A stretch of 64,000 bases of DNA from an uncultured Anaerolineales bacterium (GTDB lineage Bacteria; Chloroflexota; Anaerolineae; Anaerolineales; UBA11858), in NCBI GenBank assembly GCA_964438295.1, contig CAYTKR010000004.1:9849-73848 (forward strand), written 5' to 3'. The position numbers and the translations under genes are program-made. Below, one piece after another: positions 1 to 63,405 of this stretch (its first letter is position 1; the number at the start of each line of letters is the position of its first letter). The notes beneath the pieces were generated by a model. It did not search any database and was not told where the DNA came from. It saw only the letters and a program-made list of their open reading frames with translations.

Positions 1-2045
1 ATGCGCTTTGTTTTATCCAGCATCGAGCCCAGATCAGTCTGGAATGTGAGTTTCTCCAGTTGAGGGACGAAGTCCTCTAATTTGCTTTCCATATCTTCGC
101 GCACGAAATAGGCTGCGTCGGCAAAGCGCGCTCGGATGACGTCTTCATTGCCCCGAATGACAAGATCATAGGCACCATTGCCGGGTTTATTGGCGACGGT
201 GATGAAATAGGGGATCAACTCACCGTTTTTCTGGATGGGGAAATAGCGCTGGTGTTTTTTCATCACGGAGATGAGTACTTCGTCCGGGAGTTCGAGGTGA
301 CGGGGGTTGAACTCACCGAGAAGGGCAGTTGGCGCTTCAACTAGATGTGTGACTTCAAGCAACAAATCAGGGTCGTTGGGGATTTCACCATCGACCTTTG
401 CCGCCAGTGCGTGGATTTGATCTTCGATGACAGCCATGCGCTCTTCTGGATCTAGAAGGATACCTGCCGCTGCAATCTCATTGAAGTAGTCGCTGGAGCT
501 GTTAACGGGGATGGTTTTATTTTCAGTGAAGCGCAAACCCTGCGTGGTGCCCTGAGCTTGGAGCCCGGCGAATTCAAAGGGGATCAGGGCTTCGCCATGT
601 AGTGCCAACAACCAACGGATGGGTCGTGAGAAAGCAGTGTTGGTTTCATTCCAGCGCATGGTCTTGACGAAATGGATCTCAGCGACCAATTTGGGCAAGG
701 CCTCGGTTAGCACCTCGATGGATGTGCGGCCGTCTTGTTTCACCACTGCAACAACATATTCCCCGCCGTCGATCTCACGAGCTTCTAATTGGCCTACATC
801 AATGCCCTTAGAACGGGCAAACCCTTCGGCGGCCTTGGAGGGAACACCATCGGCGTCGAAGGCACGATTGGCAGGGGGGCCCTTGACCAATTCTTCAATA
901 TCTTCCTGGTTGGGGGCCAAATCTTCGACGTGGATGACTAAACGTCGGGGCGTGCCTAAGATCTTAATCTCACCATGCTCAAGGCGAAGTTCACCCAGCA
1001 AAGCGGGAACGCTCTTTCGTAACTGTGCCAGGGCATCTTCCAGGTCACCTGGGGGAAGTTCTTCGGTACCGATTTCTACAAGCACAGGTGCAGGGGTGTC
1101 AGGGTGGTGGGGTGCCGACGTGCTTGCATCCCCCTTGCTCCCACGTTCCCTTGCATCCGTGCCTTCTTCTCCAAGCCAGGGAAATTCCAAACGGGTGCGC
1201 TGTTCAATATATTCGTCCCCAATGCCACGTACCAGAGAGCGCATTCGGCGGAAGAATCCCGCCCGCTCGGTCACGCCAATGGCACCGCGTGTGTCGAGGA
1301 TATTGAAGGTATGTGAGCACTTTAGCAGATAGTCGTGGGCTGGCAGCACCTGATGGTTTTCCAGGCAAACCTTGGCCTCGGCTTCGTAGAGATCGAACAT
1401 TTGGCGCAAACGATCGACATTGGCCAGTTCGAAGGCATACTTGCTAGATTCTTGCTCGTTTTGCAAATAAACATCGCCATAGGTCATGCTCTGGTTCCAA
1501 CGGATGTCGCGAAAATCGCGCACACCCTGGATAGCCATGGCGATGCGCTCAAGCCCATAGGTCAGTTCAACGGCCACAGGGTCTAGTGTTTGCCCGCCAA
1601 CCTGTTGGAAGTAGGTGAATTGTGTGATCTCGAGACCATCCAGCCAGACTTCCCATCCCAAACCCCAGGCAGAGATGGCTGGTTGAGCCCAGTTATCTTC
1701 CACAAAACGGATATCATGTTTGTGGGGATCGATGCCAAGAGCAACCAGGGATTCCAGATAAAGCTCTTGGGGATTTCCAGGGTCGGGTTTGAGTATGACC
1801 TGATATTGGATGTGCTGGTAGAAACGGTTGGGATTTTCTCCGAAGCGACCGTCATCGGGTCGAATGGAGGGTTCTACGTATGCGACGTTCCAAGGTTCTG
1901 GCCCAAGGACGCGCAGTACAGTGCCGGGGTTCATAGTGCCAGCCCCGACCTCTGTGTGATAAGGCTGCCAAATCAGGCATCCCTTGTCGTTCCAGAAATC
2001 TTGCAGTGCAATGATGATTGATTGAAAGTCAAGTGGTTGGGTCAT
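1..2045 (-). CDS. glyQS: glycine--tRNA ligase, fused alpha (GlyQ) and beta (GlyS) subunits; 3' end runs off the window
   Basis: Hand translation of the minus strand gives an uninterrupted frame from ATG at 2045-2043 to position 1. It is absent from the ORF track because there is no stop in the window. The N-terminus [23 protein letters not shown] and the motif [22 protein letters not shown] are typical of GlyQ. After a linker ([26 protein letters not shown]) the frame continues [15 protein letters not shown] and ends [19 protein letters not shown], typical of GlyS. The plus-strand ORFs at 619-2021 are shadow ORFs. Confidence 0.9.
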
Positions 2046-2105
2046 AGATTGGATATTTTGTTTTCGGTATCAGGAATTAGGTATTGGGGGGGATTATACT
2101 CGGAA

Positions 2106-3628: not shown

Positions 3629-4458
3629 CACGGAATCTCCCCAGATAGTTCCTGCTCGATCAAATTCTGGAAGACTTCAAAAGGTTGCGCCCCTACTAAT
3701 GGAATACCATTCACGAAGAAAGTCGGCGTAGAGCGCACACCCAGGCTGGCAGCGTATTCGTAATCTGCCATAACCTCTTCATTTTGGCGACCGCTATCCA
3801 GGCAGTCTGAAAAAGCATCCAAATCCAGGCTCAAATTGCTGGCATACTGTTCATAGGCGTTCTTATCTAAGCCTAATTCCATACTGAAGAGTAATTCACT
3901 GAATTCCCAATAAGTACCCTGTTCTCCAGCACAATTTGCTGCTGCGGCAGCCGGAGTTGCGTTGGGATGGATTGTCGTGAGCGGAAAGTCCCGATACACC
4001 AGTCGTACCTGATCGGGATAGGATTCTTGAATTTGAGGCCAAACCTCTAAATGCCATCTGCGGCAGTAGGGGCACTCATAGTCACTGAACTCGATAATCG
4101 TAATTGGTGCGTCATCAGATCCCCAAACTGGGTCATCATCTTCGGGAATGTCGTACCGCTGAACTTGTTGGGGTTCGGCCTGAACCTGTGCAGCCTGTGC
4201 GGGCGCGGCATCCGCAGTAGTTGGGGCTGTTGTCTCTGGGATTGTGCGTCCCCAAAAGATATAGCCTACAGCCAGTCCTACGACGAAGGCCAGGGGCAGC
4301 AGCGCGGCGTATACATGGGAACGCTTGAAGGTCAGTGTGCCAGTTTCAGAAGTTTCGTCTTCAAGTACTTCATCAATTTTGGGTTGGTCGAGGTCTTTTT
4401 CGATGACTTCTTCAGTGTCATCGATTTTGGCTTGGGTAGTGGTGGTCTCTTCTTCCAT
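3628..4458 (-). CDS. membrane-anchored DsbA-family thiol:disulfide oxidoreductase
   Basis: Acidic N-terminus, one TM helix (YAALLPLAFVVGLAVGYIFWG), and a thioredoxin fold with the CPYC active site (FSDYECPYCRRWH). Confidence 0.85.
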   Translation of the reverse strand: MEEETTTTQAKIDDTEEVIEKDLDQPKIDEVLEDETSETGTLTFKRSHVYAALLPLAFVVGLAVGYIFWGRTIPETTAPTTADAAPAQAAQVQAEPQQVQRYDIPEDDDPVWGSDDAPITIIEFSDYECPYCRRWHLEVWPQIQESYPDQVRLVYRDFPLTTIHPNATPAAAAANCAGEQGTYWEFSELLFSMELGLDKNAYEQYASNLSLDLDAFSDCLDSGRQNEEVMADYEYAASLGVRSTPTFFVNGIPLVGAQPFEVFQNLIEQELSGEIP

Positions 4459-53272: not shown

Positions 53273-54703
53273 TCAAGGCGTCGCCTTCCAGGTCAGGTAA
53301 TCGAAGGTCAGGCCATTGGTATCGAAATGAGTCGGGCGCAGCCAGCCATAATAGGTGCCCGTACCAGGCGTGAACTGATAGCAATAGTAATCAGTTTCAG
53401 AAATGGGCCAGATGGCAGCCTGGTTGTACGAGGCATTCTCGCAGTCAGACTTGGCTGGCTCGCTGGCCATGGCAGCGGAGAAGAGAACTTCATTTGGTGA
53501 GATCTGCATCACTGTGAGGGTATTGCGGGTCATTTCCCTGTATAGGAACCCAGCGAAGGTGCCGCTGCAGCTCTCATTGAGATTTCCGTATTGCACATCG
53601 AAGCACTCCCCAGGGAGCATGGTGACCTGATCGCCCTGGCTCTCGACGAAGAGAGCATTGGGATTGATGGGCTGCATCTGGGGTGGATCAACCTCGAAGG
53701 TCATGAAATCGAAGGTGACGCCATCCTGGTCGAAACGCTCAACCCGAATCCAACCGTAGGTCGTGTTGACGATATTGCTGATCTGGAAGCAGAAGTACTT
53801 ATCTTCCAGGGCAGAGTGTGCAATCGGAATATAGATTTCAGCTTCACAGGTAGCTTTGTCGGGCTCGTCATCACGGTTTGTTGCCAGTTCGGTATTATTC
53901 TCTCCATGAAATTTTCCGCTCGTCACAGGGTTGAACTGGTACATGATGTCTGCCGCCGAGTCGCTGCAATCTACTTCCTGACCGTTGTTGAGATCGAAGC
54001 ATTGCCCATCCAACAGAGTCAGTTCGGTACCCGTTATCTGCGCCTCGGGATTGTTTTCCGGTTCAGGGGTTGGGGCCGGGGTGTTGCCGCCGCTGGGAAT
54101 GACTTTGATTGCAACTCTCAGCGGGCTATTCGGCGGAGCGTCCATCCCAAAAACATGACCCTGTGCATCAACCATCTTCCATGCGGAGACATAAGCACCC
54201 GGTTGAGCGGGGGCCTGCATTTCGACAGATAGCGTTGTCGTGTGCCCCGGCGCTACCGGCGTAGAAATAGAAAGAATTTCCTCTGAAACACTGATATCGC
54301 CTCCCAGCATCTTCAATTTGTATTGCGGCTTCCAGGTGCAGTCGCCGGTATTCTCGATGGTCCAATTGACCTGAAAGACCTCATCTGGCTGGAACTGCTG
54401 GCCGTTGGTGACATCGGCGTTGGCGATGAAGCCCTCGCTACATTGAACTCCGTTCTGGGGCTGGGAAGGCTGAACTGGTTGATTAGGTTCCTCTGGCTCT
54501 GGAATGTCAGGTTCTTCCGGTTCATCCTGTTGTTCTGGGGGAAGTTCGATCTCAGGCTCACTTGTATCAGGTTGTTGAACGGTTTGATCCTCGGGTGGAG
54601 TATCCACCTCGGGGGTCTCTGATAATCCTGGCAAGGAACAGGCAAATTGTGCCAAGGCTAATGTAACGATAATCGACATTAGAACAATGACTTTGTACTT
54701 CAT
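53273..54703 (-). CDS. secreted lipoprotein with a duplicated C-terminal domain, function unknown
   Basis: Signal/lipobox MKYKVIVLMSIIVTLALAQFAC-S (ATG at 54703 with AGGAGG upstream) and a P/E-rich linker. A possible NBR1-FW-like segment (NWTIENTGDCTWKPQYKL) is followed by two related ~125-aa modules ending YGWIRVERFDQDGVTFDF and YGWLRPTHFDTNGLTFDY. Confidence 0.7.
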   Translation of the reverse strand: MKYKVIVLMSIIVTLALAQFACSLPGLSETPEVDTPPEDQTVQQPDTSEPEIELPPEQQDEPEEPDIPEPEEPNQPVQPSQPQNGVQCSEGFIANADVTNGQQFQPDEVFQVNWTIENTGDCTWKPQYKLKMLGGDISVSEEILSISTPVAPGHTTTLSVEMQAPAQPGAYVSAWKMVDAQGHVFGMDAPPNSPLRVAIKVIPSGGNTPAPTPEPENNPEAQITGTELTLLDGQCFDLNNGQEVDCSDSAADIMYQFNPVTSGKFHGENNTELATNRDDEPDKATCEAEIYIPIAHSALEDKYFCFQISNIVNTTYGWIRVERFDQDGVTFDFMTFEVDPPQMQPINPNALFVESQGDQVTMLPGECFDVQYGNLNESCSGTFAGFLYREMTRNTLTVMQISPNEVLFSAAMASEPAKSDCENASYNQAAIWPISETDYYCYQFTPGTGTYYGWLRPTHFDTNGLTFDYLTWKATP

Positions 54704-54783
54704 GACGGCCTCCTTTGGAGTACTCTCCATTTACTCGTTTGAAAAACATGAAGCTTGTGAAGTGGTCTTAGGATAGCACAGAG

Positions 54784-54803
54784 ATGTTCAGAAGTTGTTT
54801 AGA
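54784..54803 (-). promoter_or_regulatory. conserved 20-nt upstream element, copy A
   Basis: The plus strand reads ATGTTCAGAAGTTGTTTAGA, identical to copy B. It lies 80 nt upstream of the ATG at 54703. Confidence 0.5.
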
Positions 54804-55035
54804 TCGTGTTTAGCACCCCTATAGAAATTGTAAGAGAAATTTATATTTCAAGAGCTATTAATTTGGTATGCGGCTTGTCAGAGATAAGTGCTTCGGGTGA
54901 CATCCATAGCATTTACCCCCCAAATCTACAAACTTCTTCAGAGTACCTAGGAAGCCTACTAATTTGGAGTATTAAGGTGTAAATTATGATTTATAATTGA
55001 TATTATGAAATAAGTTGCACAAAGGAGGTATTTTT

Positions 55036-57259: not shown

Positions 57260-58789
57260 CTAAGGTCTGCTCTCTGGAATGCAAACAAGCTGTGATTGCC
57301 TGATTTGACAAGAGCCGCTGACTTCCTTGTTGGGATGTTGGATAGTACAAGCCGCGCCTACAACCAAGCTTCTGCAGGCATCTAACGCCCTTTGGTGTTG
57401 TTCGTTGTTTCTTTGAGAGCCTCCTGCTTCCGGGGGTTCAGCTTTGAGTGTTTCTCCAGGCTCTAGATTCAGGCTCGCCAATCCAGGGTAATTGGCAGCG
57501 AATTGTGTTACGCGAAAAACATTATCGCCAAAATCATAGCTCCAAACGATTTCGCCTGCTGGCGTGACCTCAAAGAAAAAGCCATTCGGGCCGCTGCAGA
57601 TCAGCGTATTGCCATTGGGTAAACGCTGCGCCCCAGAGATGTGGTCGGCGAAAAAGTCGGGGGGATTTTCGGCCTGGTACGTCCAGGTGGGGGCCTCAGG
57701 GCCATATGCCGCGCCAGGTGTCAGGCTATAGCTGCCATCTTCGTTTGAGGGTGGAGTAATCTCATCTACGGTGGAGTAAACACGGGCGGCCTTGTGCCCG
57801 TTGTTGAACACCAAGATATTGCCTCCACCGGGGTAATCGGTGGGAATCCATTGGGCGTCATGCTGAACATAAAGCTGCCGATCCTCTTCGGTTCCAGAGT
57901 CATAGGCCTCAGGGTTGCCCCAACGATAGAGCAAGTCGCCCGCGGGCCCGGCGGCTTCTTCGGTGGTTGTGTCGTGATCAATGATCCAAATCTCGCTAAA
58001 CCCATGCACGCTGAGCATGATCTGATCCAGTACAGCGTTGTAGTCGATGGCGTTGGTGTGGTTCCAGTCCGCACTGGACTCGCGGGCGGTGTGATTGAGA
58101 TCGATCAACTCAGGATGTTCAGCTACCACGCCGTAGTTCCCTTTGGTTGCATCATAATCCTGAACGAGATGATCCCAGACATGCCACTCCCAGACGATTT
58201 GATCGGTGTTGGGATCCACCTCGATGACGTGATCCGGCCAGAGTTCGCCATCTTTTAGTAAGCTGGGATCGCGCCCGGCGGCGATGGCCTCGGCGCGAGT
58301 CTTATACTCCCATGCGATCATCAGGATGTTGCCGTTGGGGAGTTGCTCGATATCGTGGTGCTGCTGCACCTGGTTGTTAGCATACCTGAATTCCCAGACG
58401 ACAGTATTGTCGGGGGCGATCTCCTGCACCACACCGCCGGATCCGCCGGCGTCGAAAACGCCTGTTTTTACCGTGCCGGGTTGCAGCAGGTTGCCGTTCT
58501 CCAGCAGATACACAGAATTGCCTGGAGTGTAGTCGCTTCCCCAGGTGTAGACGGCCACACCCTCGGCGTTCATCAGGTGAGTTTCAGTGGAACGAATGGG
58601 GGAGAAAAAGTATAGTGCTTCCGAAGAGAGCTGTTCCTCTGAGGATAGCAAATTGTTTTCGCCAGAATCATCTGGGACCGAAACTTCGCTTGTAGCCTCG
58701 GCTGTTTGATCAGTGAAGCCTGCCAGGAGTGAACAGGCTAGAGTGCTGAAAAGGATAATCGTGATCAGGAGAAGCTTTTTGCTGTGCAT
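57260..58789 (-). CDS. arylsulfotransferase (ASST)-like beta-propeller lipoprotein with a C-terminal 4-Cys module
   Basis: Lipobox FSTLAC-S, then ASST-like motifs LLENGNLL and QQHHDIEQLPNGNILMIAWE. The tail is ALDACRSLVVGAACTIQHPNKEVSGSCQIRQSQLVCIP. Confidence 0.7.
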   Translation of the reverse strand: MHSKKLLLITIILFSTLACSLLAGFTDQTAEATSEVSVPDDSGENNLLSSEEQLSSEALYFFSPIRSTETHLMNAEGVAVYTWGSDYTPGNSVYLLENGNLLQPGTVKTGVFDAGGSGGVVQEIAPDNTVVWEFRYANNQVQQHHDIEQLPNGNILMIAWEYKTRAEAIAAGRDPSLLKDGELWPDHVIEVDPNTDQIVWEWHVWDHLVQDYDATKGNYGVVAEHPELIDLNHTARESSADWNHTNAIDYNAVLDQIMLSVHGFSEIWIIDHDTTTEEAAGPAGDLLYRWGNPEAYDSGTEEDRQLYVQHDAQWIPTDYPGGGNILVFNNGHKAARVYSTVDEITPPSNEDGSYSLTPGAAYGPEAPTWTYQAENPPDFFADHISGAQRLPNGNTLICSGPNGFFFEVTPAGEIVWSYDFGDNVFRVTQFAANYPGLASLNLEPGETLKAEPPEAGGSQRNNEQHQRALDACRSLVVGAACTIQHPNKEVSGSCQIRQSQLVCIPESRP

Positions 58790-59148
58790 GTTGGTTTGCT
58801 TTCGTGTTGTTCCTAGCTAGAGCGATTAAAACCTATAGAACTTACGCAGTTTGGAGAGGAAATTGATCGTTAAAATCACAAATAAGCCGGTTGAGGCTCT
58901 CGAACCCAGCGGAGGGCTTCGAGAACATTTCGGTAAGCTCAATTCGCCGCCTCAGCCCTCCGGCGTAATTTTCGGATAGATATTTAGTACACTGTAAAAT
59001 AAGTTATTCTCGATTATCTCACTGAGCGGAGGAGCAGAAGCGTCTTTCGACTACTTCCCGAACTGCTTCGGGCTTCCGCTCAAGATGCTTCTGCTCCGTA
59101 GTCGAAGTGACACAGGATCCACTTCAAGTTACTTTGTTTACAATGTAT

Positions 59149-60477
59149 TTAGTTCGATTGAGAGTCATCAAGCGGGGTGCCGTCGAAACCGGGGTAGTCA
59201 GAATAGTAACGTTCAACACGGAAGACGGCATTGCGTACGGGATCGGGCTCGTGGATCTGGTATTCCCAGACCGATTGGCCTGAATAAGTTACCTCGAAGA
59301 GGTATGAGTCCCCTCCGTTGCAAGTCAACGTATTGCCGTTGGGGAGCCGCTGGGCCCCCGAAATGGATTTAGCATAAAAGTCGGTGGGATTTGGGGCTGT
59401 ATAGATCCAGACCGGTTCGTCGGGGTTGTAGGCGGAACCCGCGGCAAGGGGGTAGGTGCCGTCAGGGTTCACTGGTGGCGTTATCTCGACGATCGATGAG
59501 TATTTACCATCCGGACGTCTCATGCCGTTGTTGAAGATCAAGATGTTGCCCTCCCCAGGCAGCCCGGCCCCAATCCACTCGGCGTCGTGTTGGTGAAAGA
59601 GCTGCTGATCGGCGTCAGTCCCTGCATCGTAGGTTTGGGGGTTGCCCCAGCGATAGAGCAGGTCACCGCCCACCCCGCTATTGCCACCTGTGTGACCAGC
59701 CGCTTCAGCAGTGGTTGTGCTGTGGTCAATGACCCAGACTTCGCTGAAGCTGTGGACACTCAGCAAGATCTGATCCAGTTCTGCGTTGTAATCAACGGCG
59801 TTGGAGTGGAACCAATCGGCGGCGTTAAACCCGACATAGTTCAGGTCGATCAGCTCGGGGTGGTCGGCAACGACGCCAAAGTTGTCCTTGGTGGCATCAT
59901 AATCCTGAATGAGATGGTCCCAGGCATACCACTCCCAGACGATATCGCCCGTGGTGGGCCCGGTGGGTTGCACCTCGATGATACTGCCCGGCCACAACTC
60001 GCCATCTTTCAAAAGCGATGGATCGCGACCCGCGGCAAGGGCCTCAGCTTCAGTCTTGTACTGCCAGGCGATCATCAGCACGTTGCCATTGGGCAGCATC
60101 TCGACGTCGTGGTGCTGCAAGTGTGTGCTGCTGGAGTACTCATACTCCCAAGTGACATTTCCATCCCAGTCGATCAACTGGACGATGCCGCCTGCACCGT
60201 CTGCTCTGAAGGTACGATTACGCGCTCCGCCAGTGTAAAGCAGTTGACCGTTTTCCAGGAAATACACTACATTGCCAGGTTTGTAGTTGGTTTCCCAGGA
60301 GTGGACGATGTTCCCTGCATTGTCCACCAGGTTGACTGTCGTTGTGTGGAGTAGTACGAACAGGTTGTAGTCTTCGGTGCCAGGTTCTTCCTGACCAGCG
60401 GCCTTATCCACTAACGCAAACGCCGGGATCGATACGCTCAGCAAAACGATTAGGATAGTAAGGGAAATTTTCTTCAT
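59149..60477 (-). CDS. arylsulfotransferase (ASST)-like secreted protein (paralog without the 4-Cys module)
   Basis: The signal peptide and long blocks match the 57260-58789 protein (AAGRDPSLLKDGELWP, DYDATK.NFGVVA.HPELIDLN). Confidence 0.7.
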   Translation of the reverse strand: MKKISLTILIVLLSVSIPAFALVDKAAGQEEPGTEDYNLFVLLHTTTVNLVDNAGNIVHSWETNYKPGNVVYFLENGQLLYTGGARNRTFRADGAGGIVQLIDWDGNVTWEYEYSSSTHLQHHDVEMLPNGNVLMIAWQYKTEAEALAAGRDPSLLKDGELWPGSIIEVQPTGPTTGDIVWEWYAWDHLIQDYDATKDNFGVVADHPELIDLNYVGFNAADWFHSNAVDYNAELDQILLSVHSFSEVWVIDHSTTTAEAAGHTGGNSGVGGDLLYRWGNPQTYDAGTDADQQLFHQHDAEWIGAGLPGEGNILIFNNGMRRPDGKYSSIVEITPPVNPDGTYPLAAGSAYNPDEPVWIYTAPNPTDFYAKSISGAQRLPNGNTLTCNGGDSYLFEVTYSGQSVWEYQIHEPDPVRNAVFRVERYYSDYPGFDGTPLDDSQSN

Positions 60478-60492
60478 GCTGATCTCCTTTCT

Positions 60493-60530
60493 CCCCTCAC
60501 CCCAACCCCTCTCCCTCAGGGAGAGGGGAG
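60493..60530 (+). repeat. REP-like element CCCTCACCCC-N-CCTCTCCC-N3-GGGAGAGG, copy 2
   Basis: CCCCTCACCCCAACCCCTCTCCCTCAGGGAGAGGGGAG lies between the DUF1566-like gene and the ASST paralog. Confidence 0.6.
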
Positions 60531-60585
60531 TCGTGCGCGCCAGAGGCGGGCCTCCGGCCAGTGATACGGGATAAGGGTATAAAAT

Positions 60586-62214
60586 CTATGGTTGCCCTTG
60601 TCCTGAGCCCGTTGGAGGGGCACCACCAGGGCCGCCTGCGGGCACGCAAGCCAAGGTGCTTTGTATGTTCGTACAACTGCCGTCTAATGTTCCTCGGGGA
60701 GTATTGATGGTGCAAGCTGCCCCTTCACTCAAGGCTGAACAAGCATCGATGGCTTCTTGTGGAGGCGCGCCTTGAGCGCCGGGACCTGGGCCAATGACCG
60801 TTGATGAAGTTTGTCCAGGCCCTTGGGATTGGCCTGAGTCCGCAGGGATCCCTGCAAATTCCGAGCTGGCCAGAGCGTTCGGATCGGTTTCACCGCCGGT
60901 GAGAACCTCTCCTGTGGTGCCGCCGGATACACAGCGGGCATAGTTGTAGATGCGTACGGCATCACCCTGCGGGCCGTGGCCTGTTGGGTAATTGGAAGGA
61001 TCACCACTTTTTTGGTCAGCCCGTTGTGCCCCGGCGCCATGGACATCCATCCAGGTGCCGTTCATATAGCCCATCGAGCGACCGAAGTTGATGTATACAC
61101 CTGAACGACTAAAGCCATCAGCATTGGTATGTGTGGTGCTGCTCCAATAGGCTGGATAATCTGATTGACCAGCTTCGTTCGTGATCATAGAGACATTGAA
61201 GATAGGATCGATGGCCGCTGAGTTGGTTGTGTCTGGTGAGCGAGAGTAATCGACGATGCTGTGCAATTCTTTTGCATTGGGCAATCGCCAATCGCTGATA
61301 CCGCCATATTCGAGACTGAAGCAGTAGTTCAAAGCGCCTTCCCAGTCCAGAGAATTTCCGCTGTCAGATTGCATCCAGGTCAGGCCAGTGGCCAAGTCGC
61401 CAACAGTTCCAGCTTGTCCTGAGCTTGACGAAGGGTCACCGTTGTCGACGAAGTTGTTGATTCCATAGTTGGTGTTGCCGCGTACATAAATTACAAAGTA
61501 AGTCTTAGCCTGGCCACCACGCGTCGAGCCAGTGGGATACCCTTTGATTCGTCCGTCTGCGAAGTTGACCCCAAACATGGCCTGGCTACCGTTCATGACA
61601 CTGCCACCATAGATTGTGCTGGTGGCCCACTGCGAGTCGATAGTGCGTTCACCAGCGGAGGTGTTTCCATACTCGAAGACGAAGTAATCGGTATCGATGA
61701 AAGGAATACCTGTGCAAGTGCCTTCTTCGACACACCGACTGACGTCGGTGCCACTGAAATCGATCAATGAATATAGTTCTTTGATGGTAGGTAAGCGCCA
61801 ATCGTTGTACCCACCCAATGTCAGACTGGATGCGCTCGCAACCGCCTGGTCATAAGTCATTTTATTCCCAGGGTCTTGCTGCCACATCAATTCTGTCACC
61901 AGGTCGGTTATTGTGCCGTCACCATTATCCTGATAGCGTGCCTGATTGCCAATCACCTGGCCATCCTGTCCGTAGTAGGATTGTCCTTCTTCCGGGCAAG
62001 GGATGCTCGTGGAATCGCTGTAGCAATATTCTTGTCCAGTATCCACAATGGCGTAGTTGTAGCCAGTTGCGTCAGCCGTATTCTGCGCCACAGATTGGGA
62101 AAAGGCGTCCGCGCTATTTGCTAGAACTGAGGCGAATGGGAATAAAATATTGCTGGCCGTGATGGCGAAACCGAGTGCAATTGCAACAATAAAGGCTTTT
62201 CTTTGCTTGTTCAT
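60586..62214 (-). CDS. DUF1566 (Lcl C-terminal domain)-like secreted protein with a C-terminal 4-Cys module
   Basis: Two DUF1566-type motifs (DWRLPTIKELYSLIDF and DWRLPNAKELHSIVDY). The tail is AIDACSALSEGAACTINTPRGTLDGSCTNIQSTLACVP. The ATG at 62214 has AAGGAG upstream. Confidence 0.75.
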   Translation of the reverse strand: MNKQRKAFIVAIALGFAITASNILFPFASVLANSADAFSQSVAQNTADATGYNYAIVDTGQEYCYSDSTSIPCPEEGQSYYGQDGQVIGNQARYQDNGDGTITDLVTELMWQQDPGNKMTYDQAVASASSLTLGGYNDWRLPTIKELYSLIDFSGTDVSRCVEEGTCTGIPFIDTDYFVFEYGNTSAGERTIDSQWATSTIYGGSVMNGSQAMFGVNFADGRIKGYPTGSTRGGQAKTYFVIYVRGNTNYGINNFVDNGDPSSSSGQAGTVGDLATGLTWMQSDSGNSLDWEGALNYCFSLEYGGISDWRLPNAKELHSIVDYSRSPDTTNSAAIDPIFNVSMITNEAGQSDYPAYWSSTTHTNADGFSRSGVYINFGRSMGYMNGTWMDVHGAGAQRADQKSGDPSNYPTGHGPQGDAVRIYNYARCVSGGTTGEVLTGGETDPNALASSEFAGIPADSGQSQGPGQTSSTVIGPGPGAQGAPPQEAIDACSALSEGAACTINTPRGTLDGSCTNIQSTLACVPAGGPGGAPPTGSGQGQP

Positions 62215-62264
62215 GGTTTGCTCCTTGATTATACAAGTAATCTTGGACAAATCTTAACAAACGC

Positions 62265-62284
62265 ATGTTCAGAAGTTGTTTAGA
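62265..62284 (-). promoter_or_regulatory. conserved 20-nt upstream element, copy B
   Basis: The plus strand reads ATGTTCAGAAGTTGTTTAGA, 50 nt upstream of the ATG at 62214. Confidence 0.5.
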
Positions 62285-62402
62285 AGTTTTGTGAATTCTG
62301 TTGGTTTCTTGGTGTGGATTTCTAGCCCCTTCCCCCAAGAATTGGTGGTAATAATTCTGCTTTCTCTAATTGGGCGTGTGTGTCATTACCCTGGGATTGG
62401 TA

Positions 62403-63024: not shown

Positions 63025-63044
63025 TTGTTCAGAAGCTGTTTAGG
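63025..63044 (-). promoter_or_regulatory. conserved 20-nt upstream element, copy C
   Basis: The plus strand reads TTGTTCAGAAGCTGTTTAGG, matching copies A and B at 17 of 20 positions. It lies 61 nt upstream of the ATG at 62963. Confidence 0.45.
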
Positions 63045-63405
63045 AGCATTGAATAAATCATGTAGATACTCGCGAGGAATTTAGGAATATATAAAAAAAC
63101 AGCAAGAACCGTATTTAGATAGTCAGGTGAGATTATCTCCAACCTTGTTGTGGGTAGACTGGGGAAAGAAGGATCTCAGCTTGAGTAAGAATTGAATATG
63201 CCAAGCCAAGAGCCTTAGCAGGGGTGCGTTCGGAAGGCGTGTGATTTCTATTTTCTTTTCCATGCGGTTATCTTACCGCTTCACCGCCTTCCTTTCACTC
63301 ACCGGTTGGTTTAGAGTTTTGGATATCAACAAAGCTCATAATACCATGGCAATGTCTTTTACCTTCCAAGAAACCCCGAAGTTCACTTGCCGAATAACGT
63401 CAATT

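Follow-up and report, generated by a model that had tools for sequence, protein, structure and literature searches.

We describe here a small four-cysteine module encoded in the DNA of an uncultured Anaerolineales bacterium (assembly GCA_964438295.1, contig CAYTKR010000004.1). The stretch analysed, called the window, is 64,000 nucleotides (nt) long, and positions refer to it unless a contig is named. A lectin-like Lcl_C protein and two ASST-like (arylsulfotransferase-like) propellers are encoded as one operon at 57260-62250 (Table 1). Pfam places an Arylsulfotrans domain on the ASST-like protein (E = 3.8e-21) and Lcl_C on the Lcl_C protein (E = 2.4e-42). The module core consists of 38 amino acids (aa), and one copy is found at or near the C-terminus of each of these two proteins. 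The initial annotation had recognized this shared C-terminal mini-domain, and the observation stands. A gapless alignment of ALDACRSLVVGAACTIQHPNKEVSGSCQIRQSQLVCIP from the ASST-like protein with AIDACSALSEGAACTINTPRGTLDGSCTNIQSTLACVP from the Lcl_C protein has 20 identical residues out of 38, and the cysteine spacing C-x8-C-x12-C-x8-C is common to both. When the whole proteins are compared by BLASTP, the tail is the sole match (E = 8e-10). The Legionella Lcl protein is reported to recognize sulphated glycosaminoglycans (PMC11162425). Together with the ASST-like genes, this suggests a sulfated-glycan theme for the operon.

The borders of the module required small corrections. The annotated start of the ASST-like copy, 57263, included the last four residues of the protein (ESRP), and the core itself starts at 57275 on the minus strand. 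A low-complexity G/P/Q linker had been described ahead of both copies. This description applies fully to the Lcl_C protein, with its G/P/Q/S-rich segment of about 48 aa, and only loosely to the short, charged linker of the ASST-like protein (EPPEAGGSQRNNEQHQR). The other propeller of the operon lacks the module, as reported earlier. It is 54% identical to the module-bearing propeller protein, is alignable across the propeller only, and ends directly after it, where the linker of the other protein begins.

Two neighboring genes with similar tails could have acquired them by chance or by a recent partial gene duplication at this locus, and the proximity of the two genes is the only point that speaks for this explanation. 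The BLASTP value and the existence of thousands of homologues elsewhere argue against chance. Duplication, which the initial annotation had listed as a possible objection, is contradicted by the DNA. The two modules are 54% identical at the nucleotide level, 11 of the 20 identical residues are specified by different codons, and the 60 nt upstream of the modules are 30% identical, which is the random level, so that the flanks are unrelated. We consider either origin of the similarity scarcely conceivable.

A regular expression and a hidden Markov model were run over the whole assembly (246 contigs, about 90% complete). Exactly four copies of the module were found, with E-values of about 1e-14 to 1e-23 against a profile of the copies. 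The next open reading frame (ORF) scores E = 0.17-0.24, leaving a 13-log gap to noise. The third and fourth copies are located on contig C39, in a membrane-bound glycosyltransferase (GT) and in a 590-aa secreted protein (P590), respectively. With four different carriers in the genome and many more elsewhere, the module is portable, as had been proposed. P590 contains a sub-threshold Pfam LTXXQ match (22.2 bits against a cut-off of 24.3) in a separate C-terminal region. Its gene is divergently transcribed from a HisKA_3 kinase/LuxR-type regulator pair (L015, G000:C39 7857-11701), an arrangement like that of cpxP beside cpxRA. The ortholog of P590 in genome G003 has two modules in tandem. The loose cysteine regular expression also matched a 5125-aa open frame at C39:19964-35338 (+) in G000. 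This frame was rejected as a carrier, being unrelated to the module; it has a repeated cysteine motif of its own, F-C-x8-9-C ... F-C ... Y-C-[DG]-P.

The distribution of the module was surveyed in 40 relatives, comprising 13 genomes of the same genus, 11 of other genera of the family and 16 of other families of the order. The module is present in 12 of the 13 same-genus genomes (G012 is without it), in 4 of the 11 from other genera, and in 1 of the 16 from other families; an overall count of the survey gives 18 of 41 relatives with the module. In a 301-genome sample of the phylum it is confined to Anaerolineales. The fetched loci encode 51 carriers, of which 17 are Lcl_C proteins, 16 are GTs and 12 are ASST-like proteins; the others are three of the P590 type, a YHYH protein and two small lipoproteins. 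Genomes of a second family (f14) mostly encode the module in the GT alone. Orthologous modules share 55-65% identity and have about 1-3% gaps, against 32-57% identity and up to 27% gaps for the linkers. Among Lcl_C orthologs, a linker of 32% identity with 22% gaps stands against a module of 65% identity. A word search restricted to the Lcl_C tail region returned orthologs only.

The GT copy places the module inside a membrane enzyme. This protein combines PMT_2 (E = 2.3e-32) and YkcB_C (E = 6.8e-16) domains and is a YkcB-type enzyme of the GT-C class. Its gene is followed by a GtrA_DPMS_TM gene (E = 3.3e-27) and then by a Glycos_transf_2 (GT2) gene (E = 7.6e-31). Judged by its domain content, the GT-GtrA-GT2 operon has the three components classically associated with glycosylation outside the membrane. 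About seven helices, a loop of about 230 residues, six helices, and a C-terminal outward domain are predicted for the enzyme by hydropathy and by an AlphaFold model from 24 sequences. A simple helix count from a cytoplasmic N-terminus puts the loop outside, after about seven helices. Residues 270-352 and 399-456 of the loop are disordered, with a predicted local distance difference test score (pLDDT) of 25-30. The module (353-398) is a folded island between them, with a pLDDT of 70-83. Foldseek gives ArnT as the closest solved fold, followed by STT3/AglB and Pmt. The loop between transmembrane helices 7 and 8 (TM7-TM8) of ArnT is flexible and close to the substrate, and the luminal TM7-TM8 loop is where PMT enzymes bear their MIR domain.

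The P/Q/G-rich loop is also present in the GT homologs of other Anaerolineales families, without a module, and no other protein in those genomes bears one. In our family (f1), GT orthologs are found only in module-containing genomes. Two genomes, G018 and G025, have module-bearing cargo proteins and no such GT. In one GT-C homolog (L052, G026:C126, ORF 1-2079, minus strand), the corresponding part of the disordered loop contains a different, beta-rich insert of about 70 aa (GRVISIDGHTLRIRGRNGEFTVEV...), which suggests that small domains are readily gained there.

A profile search of 1.84 billion representative proteins, clustered at 50% identity, yielded 1997 clusters at E <= 1e-3 and 373 at E <= 1e-10, and thus provided the further members that the initial annotation had anticipated. 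Most of the strongest matches are small tandem proteins. Among the top 150 matches, 142 are shorter than 400 aa and have two to eight detected modules with P/G/R-rich linkers between them. A signal-like N-terminus is present in 124 of the 141 top matches that have an initial Met. The family extends over Chloroflexota, Myxococcota, a 0.8-Mb genome and others. A tblastn search of plasmids with a tandem-module protein gave no match. Other architectures include an Lcl_C protein with four C-terminal copies (P0003), a YkcB-type enzyme with one module in the loop and one at the C-terminus, and a subtilase with five N-terminal modules. The position of the module relative to a given partner is not fixed. 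In Lcl_C fusions it is C-terminal in our genome and N-terminal in G086 and G133; in YHYH fusions it is C-terminal in G001 and G041 and N-terminal in G192. Another class and the 0.8-Mb genome likewise have Lcl_C and YHYH proteins with an N- or C-terminal module. Since the module can stand at either end in different lineages, these partners were fused to it independently. The module is an autonomous, exported, Cys-paired mobile domain that is shuffled along with its flexible linkers.

The earlier statement that the module could not be assigned to a named family is borne out. No Pfam-A or NCBIfam model covers it in the window tails, in proteins with up to eleven matched stretches, or in 39 diverse modules. 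The profile had no match among PDB sequences at E <= 10, and no paper in the literature collection searched had typical motif strings of the module. DUF7406 recurred as a sub-threshold name and was discarded, because it scores none of the modules of this genome. The module adds an undescribed family to the known class of small adaptor domains that work outside the cytoplasm.

The fold and the cysteine pattern were derived from larger alignments. The consensus of 328 modules is P-P-E-A-h-x-A-C-x-G-[LK]-x-x-G-[DA]-A-C-[ST]-[FV]-x4-G-x-h-x-G-T-C-x5-8-L-[AV]-C-x-P. The cysteine spacing of the family is 8/12-13/8-11, and some members keep two cysteines only. The residues that are conserved are, with few exceptions, structural (Cys, Gly, Ala and core hydrophobic residues). 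Ser or Thr is frequent beside the second (C2) and third (C3) cysteines, without being invariant. AlphaFold2, run on the lone module of about 42 residues with a 39-sequence alignment, predicts a helix (2-9) and three strands (16-21, 24-33 and 36-41) with a pLDDT of 84.7. A Foldseek comparison of this model with the PDB returned nothing at E <= 0.001, the best match being the antifungal protein NFAP2 (E = 0.31). C1 and C3 are kept in all 328 modules. C2 and C4 are jointly lost in 16 modules from six proteins, and a single loss is never seen. This joint loss implies C1-C3 and C2-C4 disulfides, which would hold the helix against the three strands. The term "disulfide-knotted" in the initial annotation is therefore half right: the module is Cys-stabilized, and the evidence favors two simple disulfides over a knot. 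With four cysteines, the module has neither the three or more disulfides, the CxxxC/CxC motifs nor the cystine knot that define CS-alpha/beta and knottin folds.

Extracytoplasmic disulfide formation is plausible in this organism, given its four VKOR and three DsbA-like genes. Taken with the signal peptides, the side of the GT loop and the paired cysteine pattern, these genes indicate that the module is a disulfide-bonded extracytoplasmic domain. One DsbA-like (Thioredoxin_4) gene is in the window, at 3655-4137 on the minus strand (C4:13503-13985). Three of the four VKOR homologues may be fusion proteins, as their ORFs are 400-447 aa long.

A short direct repeat links the carriers. The element is 21 nt long, TGTTCAGAAG-T-TGTTTAGAAG, and is made of two 10-mers (TGTTYAGAAG) with an 11-nt period. 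It occurs about eight times in the genome at four mismatches or fewer. Exact copies precede both the Lcl_C-ASST-ASST operon and the module-bearing GT (Table 1). Further variants are found upstream of a DUF362 gene beside the GT operon and of two other secreted proteins. In relatives from several genera, the element is upstream of the GT in 15 of 16 family-f1 GT loci, upstream of 10 Lcl_C genes, and upstream of one small module lipoprotein (G018), always in the same orientation relative to the gene. It is also ahead of the module-less GT of G039, which belongs to another family. From the count of 21-mers that differ by up to four mismatches, the element is expected by chance at about 1e-4 per upstream region. 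In three genomes (G006, G008 and G009), 2.5-5 kb separate the GT and Lcl_C operons. As the element is common to the GT-GtrA-GT2 and Lcl_C-ASST operons, they probably share a regulon. The shared regulon proposed for the carriers in the initial annotation thus gains support and extends to a glycosylation operon. No half-sites were found near P590 or its two-component system. The longest Lcl_C frame opens at a TTG, 16 nt from the element (62214-62250), and the ATG at 62214 (MNKQRKAF..., directly ahead of the signal peptide) is likely the truer start. The 485-aa lipoprotein downstream of another copy of the element (53273-54730, minus strand) contains repeated Cys-containing domains and no four-Cys module.

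Table 1. Features of the locus, copies of the module and sites of the 21-nt element. Positions are those of the window unless a contig is named.
Feature	Position	Strand	Description
Lcl_C/DUF1566 protein gene	60586-62250	minus	Two Lcl_C domains, secreted, module-bearing
ASST-like paralog gene	59149-60477	minus	54% identical to the module-bearing ASST-like protein; linker and module absent
ASST-like beta-propeller protein gene	57260-58789	minus	Lipoprotein-like signal peptide, module-bearing
Four-Cys module of ASST-like lipoprotein	57275-57388	minus	C-terminal, followed by just ESRP and the stop codon
ASST-like linker, propeller to module	57389-57469	minus	Short, charged, ends ...LEPGETLKAEPPEAGGSQRNNEQHQR
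Four-Cys module of Lcl_C protein	60640-60753	minus	Near the C-terminus
Lcl_C protein tail behind module	60589-60639	minus	17 aa, G/P-rich, AGGPGGAPPTGSGQGQP
Lcl_C linker ahead of module	60754-60897	minus	Low-complexity, G/P/Q/S-rich, about 48 aa
Third copy of module	contig C39		In a 793-aa membrane protein with PMT_2 and YkcB_C domains
Fourth copy of module	contig C39		In a 590-aa secreted protein with three LTXXQ motifs, about 130 residues from its N-terminus
21-nt element, exact copy	62266-62286	+	Upstream of Lcl_C-ASST-ASST operon
21-nt element, exact copy	contig C39		158 nt upstream of module-bearing glycosyltransferase
21-nt element, 2 mismatches	63026-63046	+	Upstream of 186-aa protein
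21-nt element, 2 mismatches	54785-54805	+	54 nt upstream of 485-aa lipoprotein gene
21-nt element, contig C39 sites	57-77 and 3999-4019 (G000)		Upstream of GT-GtrA-GT2 operon (exact copy already listed) and DUF362 gene

The genomic contexts of free tandem-module proteins were different. Ten small proteins of this kind were taken from a homology search, and nine contexts were informative; the sample is small and some pairs are related. Four of the nine directly adjoin an OmpR-type histidine kinase/response regulator (HK/RR) pair, three divergently and one downstream, and in two further contexts such a pair is found at a distance of up to about 3 kb. In two others, the tandem-module gene is the last in an operon that encodes an extracytoplasmic function (ECF) sigma factor, a small protein and a Metal_resist protein. 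YHYH, HupE/UreJ and EF-hand proteins are the other neighbors in this set (L053, L054, L056, L058, L069, L070). No pattern recurred among the genes around enzyme-fused copies in another class.

We favor, tentatively and at somewhat less than an even chance, the view that the module is a disulfide-stabilized binding knob on a flexible tether, directed at an envelope ligand tied to the glycosylation regulon. The folded module would be the small rigid knob and the flexible linker the tether. The knob would tie the different carriers to one envelope ligand, for which the likeliest candidate is a surface polymer or glycan made or modified by the co-regulated GT-C system. Tandem copies would add avidity, in a functional parallel, without kinship, to LysM, SLH and cell-wall-binding repeats. 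A binding knob accounts for position independence, tandem arrays, genomes with only the GT, and common regulation. The f14 genomes, with the GT as the usual sole carrier, indicate that the role of the module does not need a second module-bearing protein. Several observations weigh against a binding knob of this kind. The 328-module consensus lacks the conserved aromatic platform or charged patch expected of a shared ligand site. Several carriers are N-terminally lipid-anchored, which makes an extra anchor superfluous. Tandem proteins of other phyla adjoin two-component or ECF systems and not glycosyltransferases. The linkage of GT and cargo genes is largely limited to one genus and may be inherited synteny, and in G210 the GT and the cargo gene are on separate long contigs.

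The module could instead be a docking or recognition unit of the glycosylation system. The GT-loop copy would then capture tagged substrates through contacts of module with module or of module with enzyme, or the folded module or its linker would be the sugar acceptor. Bacteria would thereby have an analogue of the O-glycosylation that is specific to EGF and TSR domains, or of the MIR domain in PMT. The location of the module in the loop after about TM7, beside the catalytic face of the enzyme, is consistent with this idea, as are the conserved cis-element common to GT and cargo operons that are adjacent in several genomes, the restriction of f1 GT orthologs to module genomes, with GT genomes of other families devoid of any module, and the Ser/Thr residues beside C2 and C3. 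Those residues are not invariant, however, and the GT as usual sole carrier in f14 weakens purely homotypic GT-cargo docking. In addition, G018 and G025 have tagged cargo in the absence of such a GT, and most members in other phyla are tandem-only with no GT nearby. On balance, we regard docking or acceptance as rather unlikely. A related possibility is an undescribed envelope system, under the control of a response regulator, in which the module acts as address label. Its YkcB-type GT-C enzyme, with the label in its own acceptor-side loop, would glycosylate the folded module or its linker on lectin-like and enzymatic surface proteins, or build a glycan to which they dock, and the free tandem proteins of other phyla would be the soluble, stress-regulated form of the label. 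The domain-specific glycosylation of EGF and TSR repeats would then have its counterpart in bacteria. We consider this reading unlikely.

Three further roles were also weighed. The module may be an inert structural bead, a compact, protease-resistant, disulfide-locked unit that punctuates or caps linkers and provides length, stiffness or end protection. Conserved residues that are nearly all structural fit this role, and the module is always within or beside low-complexity linkers. Moreover, related GT loops are equally floppy without a module, and one has a different small insert. Yet Lcl_C and YHYH were joined to the module independently in different phyla, at one terminus or the other, 55-65% identity persists between the modules of different genera, and module-only proteins are found under dedicated regulators. 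Recurrent partners, conservation and regulated module-only proteins favor a selected activity, which leaves the inert bead improbable. An envelope sensing or stress element, responding to redox state, metal or folding stress, would explain the tandem proteins, which in 7 of 9 informative contexts are beside OmpR-type HK/RR pairs (often divergent, like cpxP) or in ECF/anti-sigma-like/Metal_resist operons. Such proteins would act like CpxP, ZraP and Spy, as output or modulator of the neighboring two-component or ECF system, and the fused copies would couple enzymes to the circuit. P590, with its three LTXXQ motifs and its divergent HisKA_3/LuxR pair, and the YHYH, HupE/UreJ and EF-hand neighbors point in the same direction. 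So does the 21-nt element, as response regulators often bind direct repeats with an 11-nt period. Nevertheless, the context sample is small and partly non-independent, there are no conserved metal ligands besides Cys, and enzyme-fused copies in other phyla have no HK/RR or ECF neighbors. The paired loss of C2 and C4 also fits disulfides rather than a four-Cys metal site. A stress element thus appears quite improbable.

The initial annotation had interpreted the module as a C-terminal tag and asked whether it always occupies the extreme C-terminus after a linker. A sorting or anchoring signal for a dedicated processing system would behave in this way, and in the window and most Anaerolineales cargo the module is indeed at or near the C-terminus after a linker. 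This pattern breaks down elsewhere. The module sits in the interior of 21 glycosyltransferases and near the N-terminus of P590 and of Lcl_C, YHYH and subtilase fusions from other lineages, and most family members have it in tandem repeats. The tails ...LVCIPESRP and ...LACVPAGGPGGAPPTGSGQGQP contain no sorting-signal motif with a hydrophobic helix and a basic tail, and 17 residues extend beyond the module on the Lcl_C protein. The obligate extreme C-terminal placement of LPXTG/sortase, PEP-CTERM, GlyGly-CTERM and T9SS C-terminal domain (CTD) signals is not a property of the module. These internal, N-proximal and tandem positions make a sorting signal very unlikely, and the tag interpretation is abandoned. 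Binding of a partner or ligand is the likeliest role.

With about 2000 clusters, the family is sizeable. It has no Pfam-A, NCBIfam or PDB model, so that its carriers are annotated only by their other domains or as hypothetical proteins. The module offers a handle on a poorly understood aspect of YkcB-type GT-C glycosylation, its acceptor substrates, for Bacillus as well. It is likewise a handle on how uncultured Anaerolineales arrange lectin-like and ASST-like secreted proteins at the surface. The linkage through the 21-nt element, the independent Lcl_C and YHYH fusions, and the tandem proteins beside two-component systems together form a testable system and not a lone motif. If the module merely stiffens linkers, it is still a useful new domain definition.

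The binding-knob reading brings the module closest to LysM, SLH, CWB2 and choline-binding repeats. Like them, it is small, autonomous, extracytoplasmic, position-independent and often tandem. It is joined by low-complexity linkers to unrelated catalytic and lectin domains, and its carriers probably fall in one surface-related regulon. The likeness is architectural only: there is no sequence or significant fold similarity to these repeats, and the module has two disulfides and little conserved surface. EGF-like, TSR, knottin and CS-alpha/beta defensin modules are also tiny, Cys-stabilized, reiterated and shuffled extracellularly. The module differs from them in having only two disulfides, another Cys spacing and no CxxxC/CxC, and in being bacterial and widespread. 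The tandem-module proteins occupy the same genomic position as CpxP, ZraP and Spy, beside HK/RR pairs or in ECF operons with Metal_resist, and P590 joins the module with LTXXQ motifs. In contrast to those proteins, the module itself contains no LTXXQ helical domain, and the regulatory link is inferred from a small sample.

The enzyme that carries the module also has known counterparts. In B. subtilis, YkcC/YkcB and CsbB/GtcA/YfhO are described as multi-component transmembrane glycosylation systems composed of a GT2, a GtrA-type flippase and a GT-C enzyme (PMC8035078, PMC5836110). Our locus resembles YkcC/YkcB-type systems in its PMT_2 + YkcB_C enzyme, followed by GtrA and GT2 genes, and in its ArnT-like fold. 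It differs in its occurrence in Chloroflexota and in sharing a cis-element with secreted proteins that bear the same mini-domain. To our knowledge, no characterized GT-C enzyme of such systems has a folded mini-domain in the outward loop after TM7. A folded accessory domain in a PMT-type outward loop is known as the MIR domain of Pmt1/Pmt2, and PDB 6P25 was among the Foldseek matches of the GT. The MIR domain is a beta-trefoil of about 200 aa and is not homologous to the module, which has 42 aa, a helix and three strands, and disordered flanks of about 80 and 60 residues.

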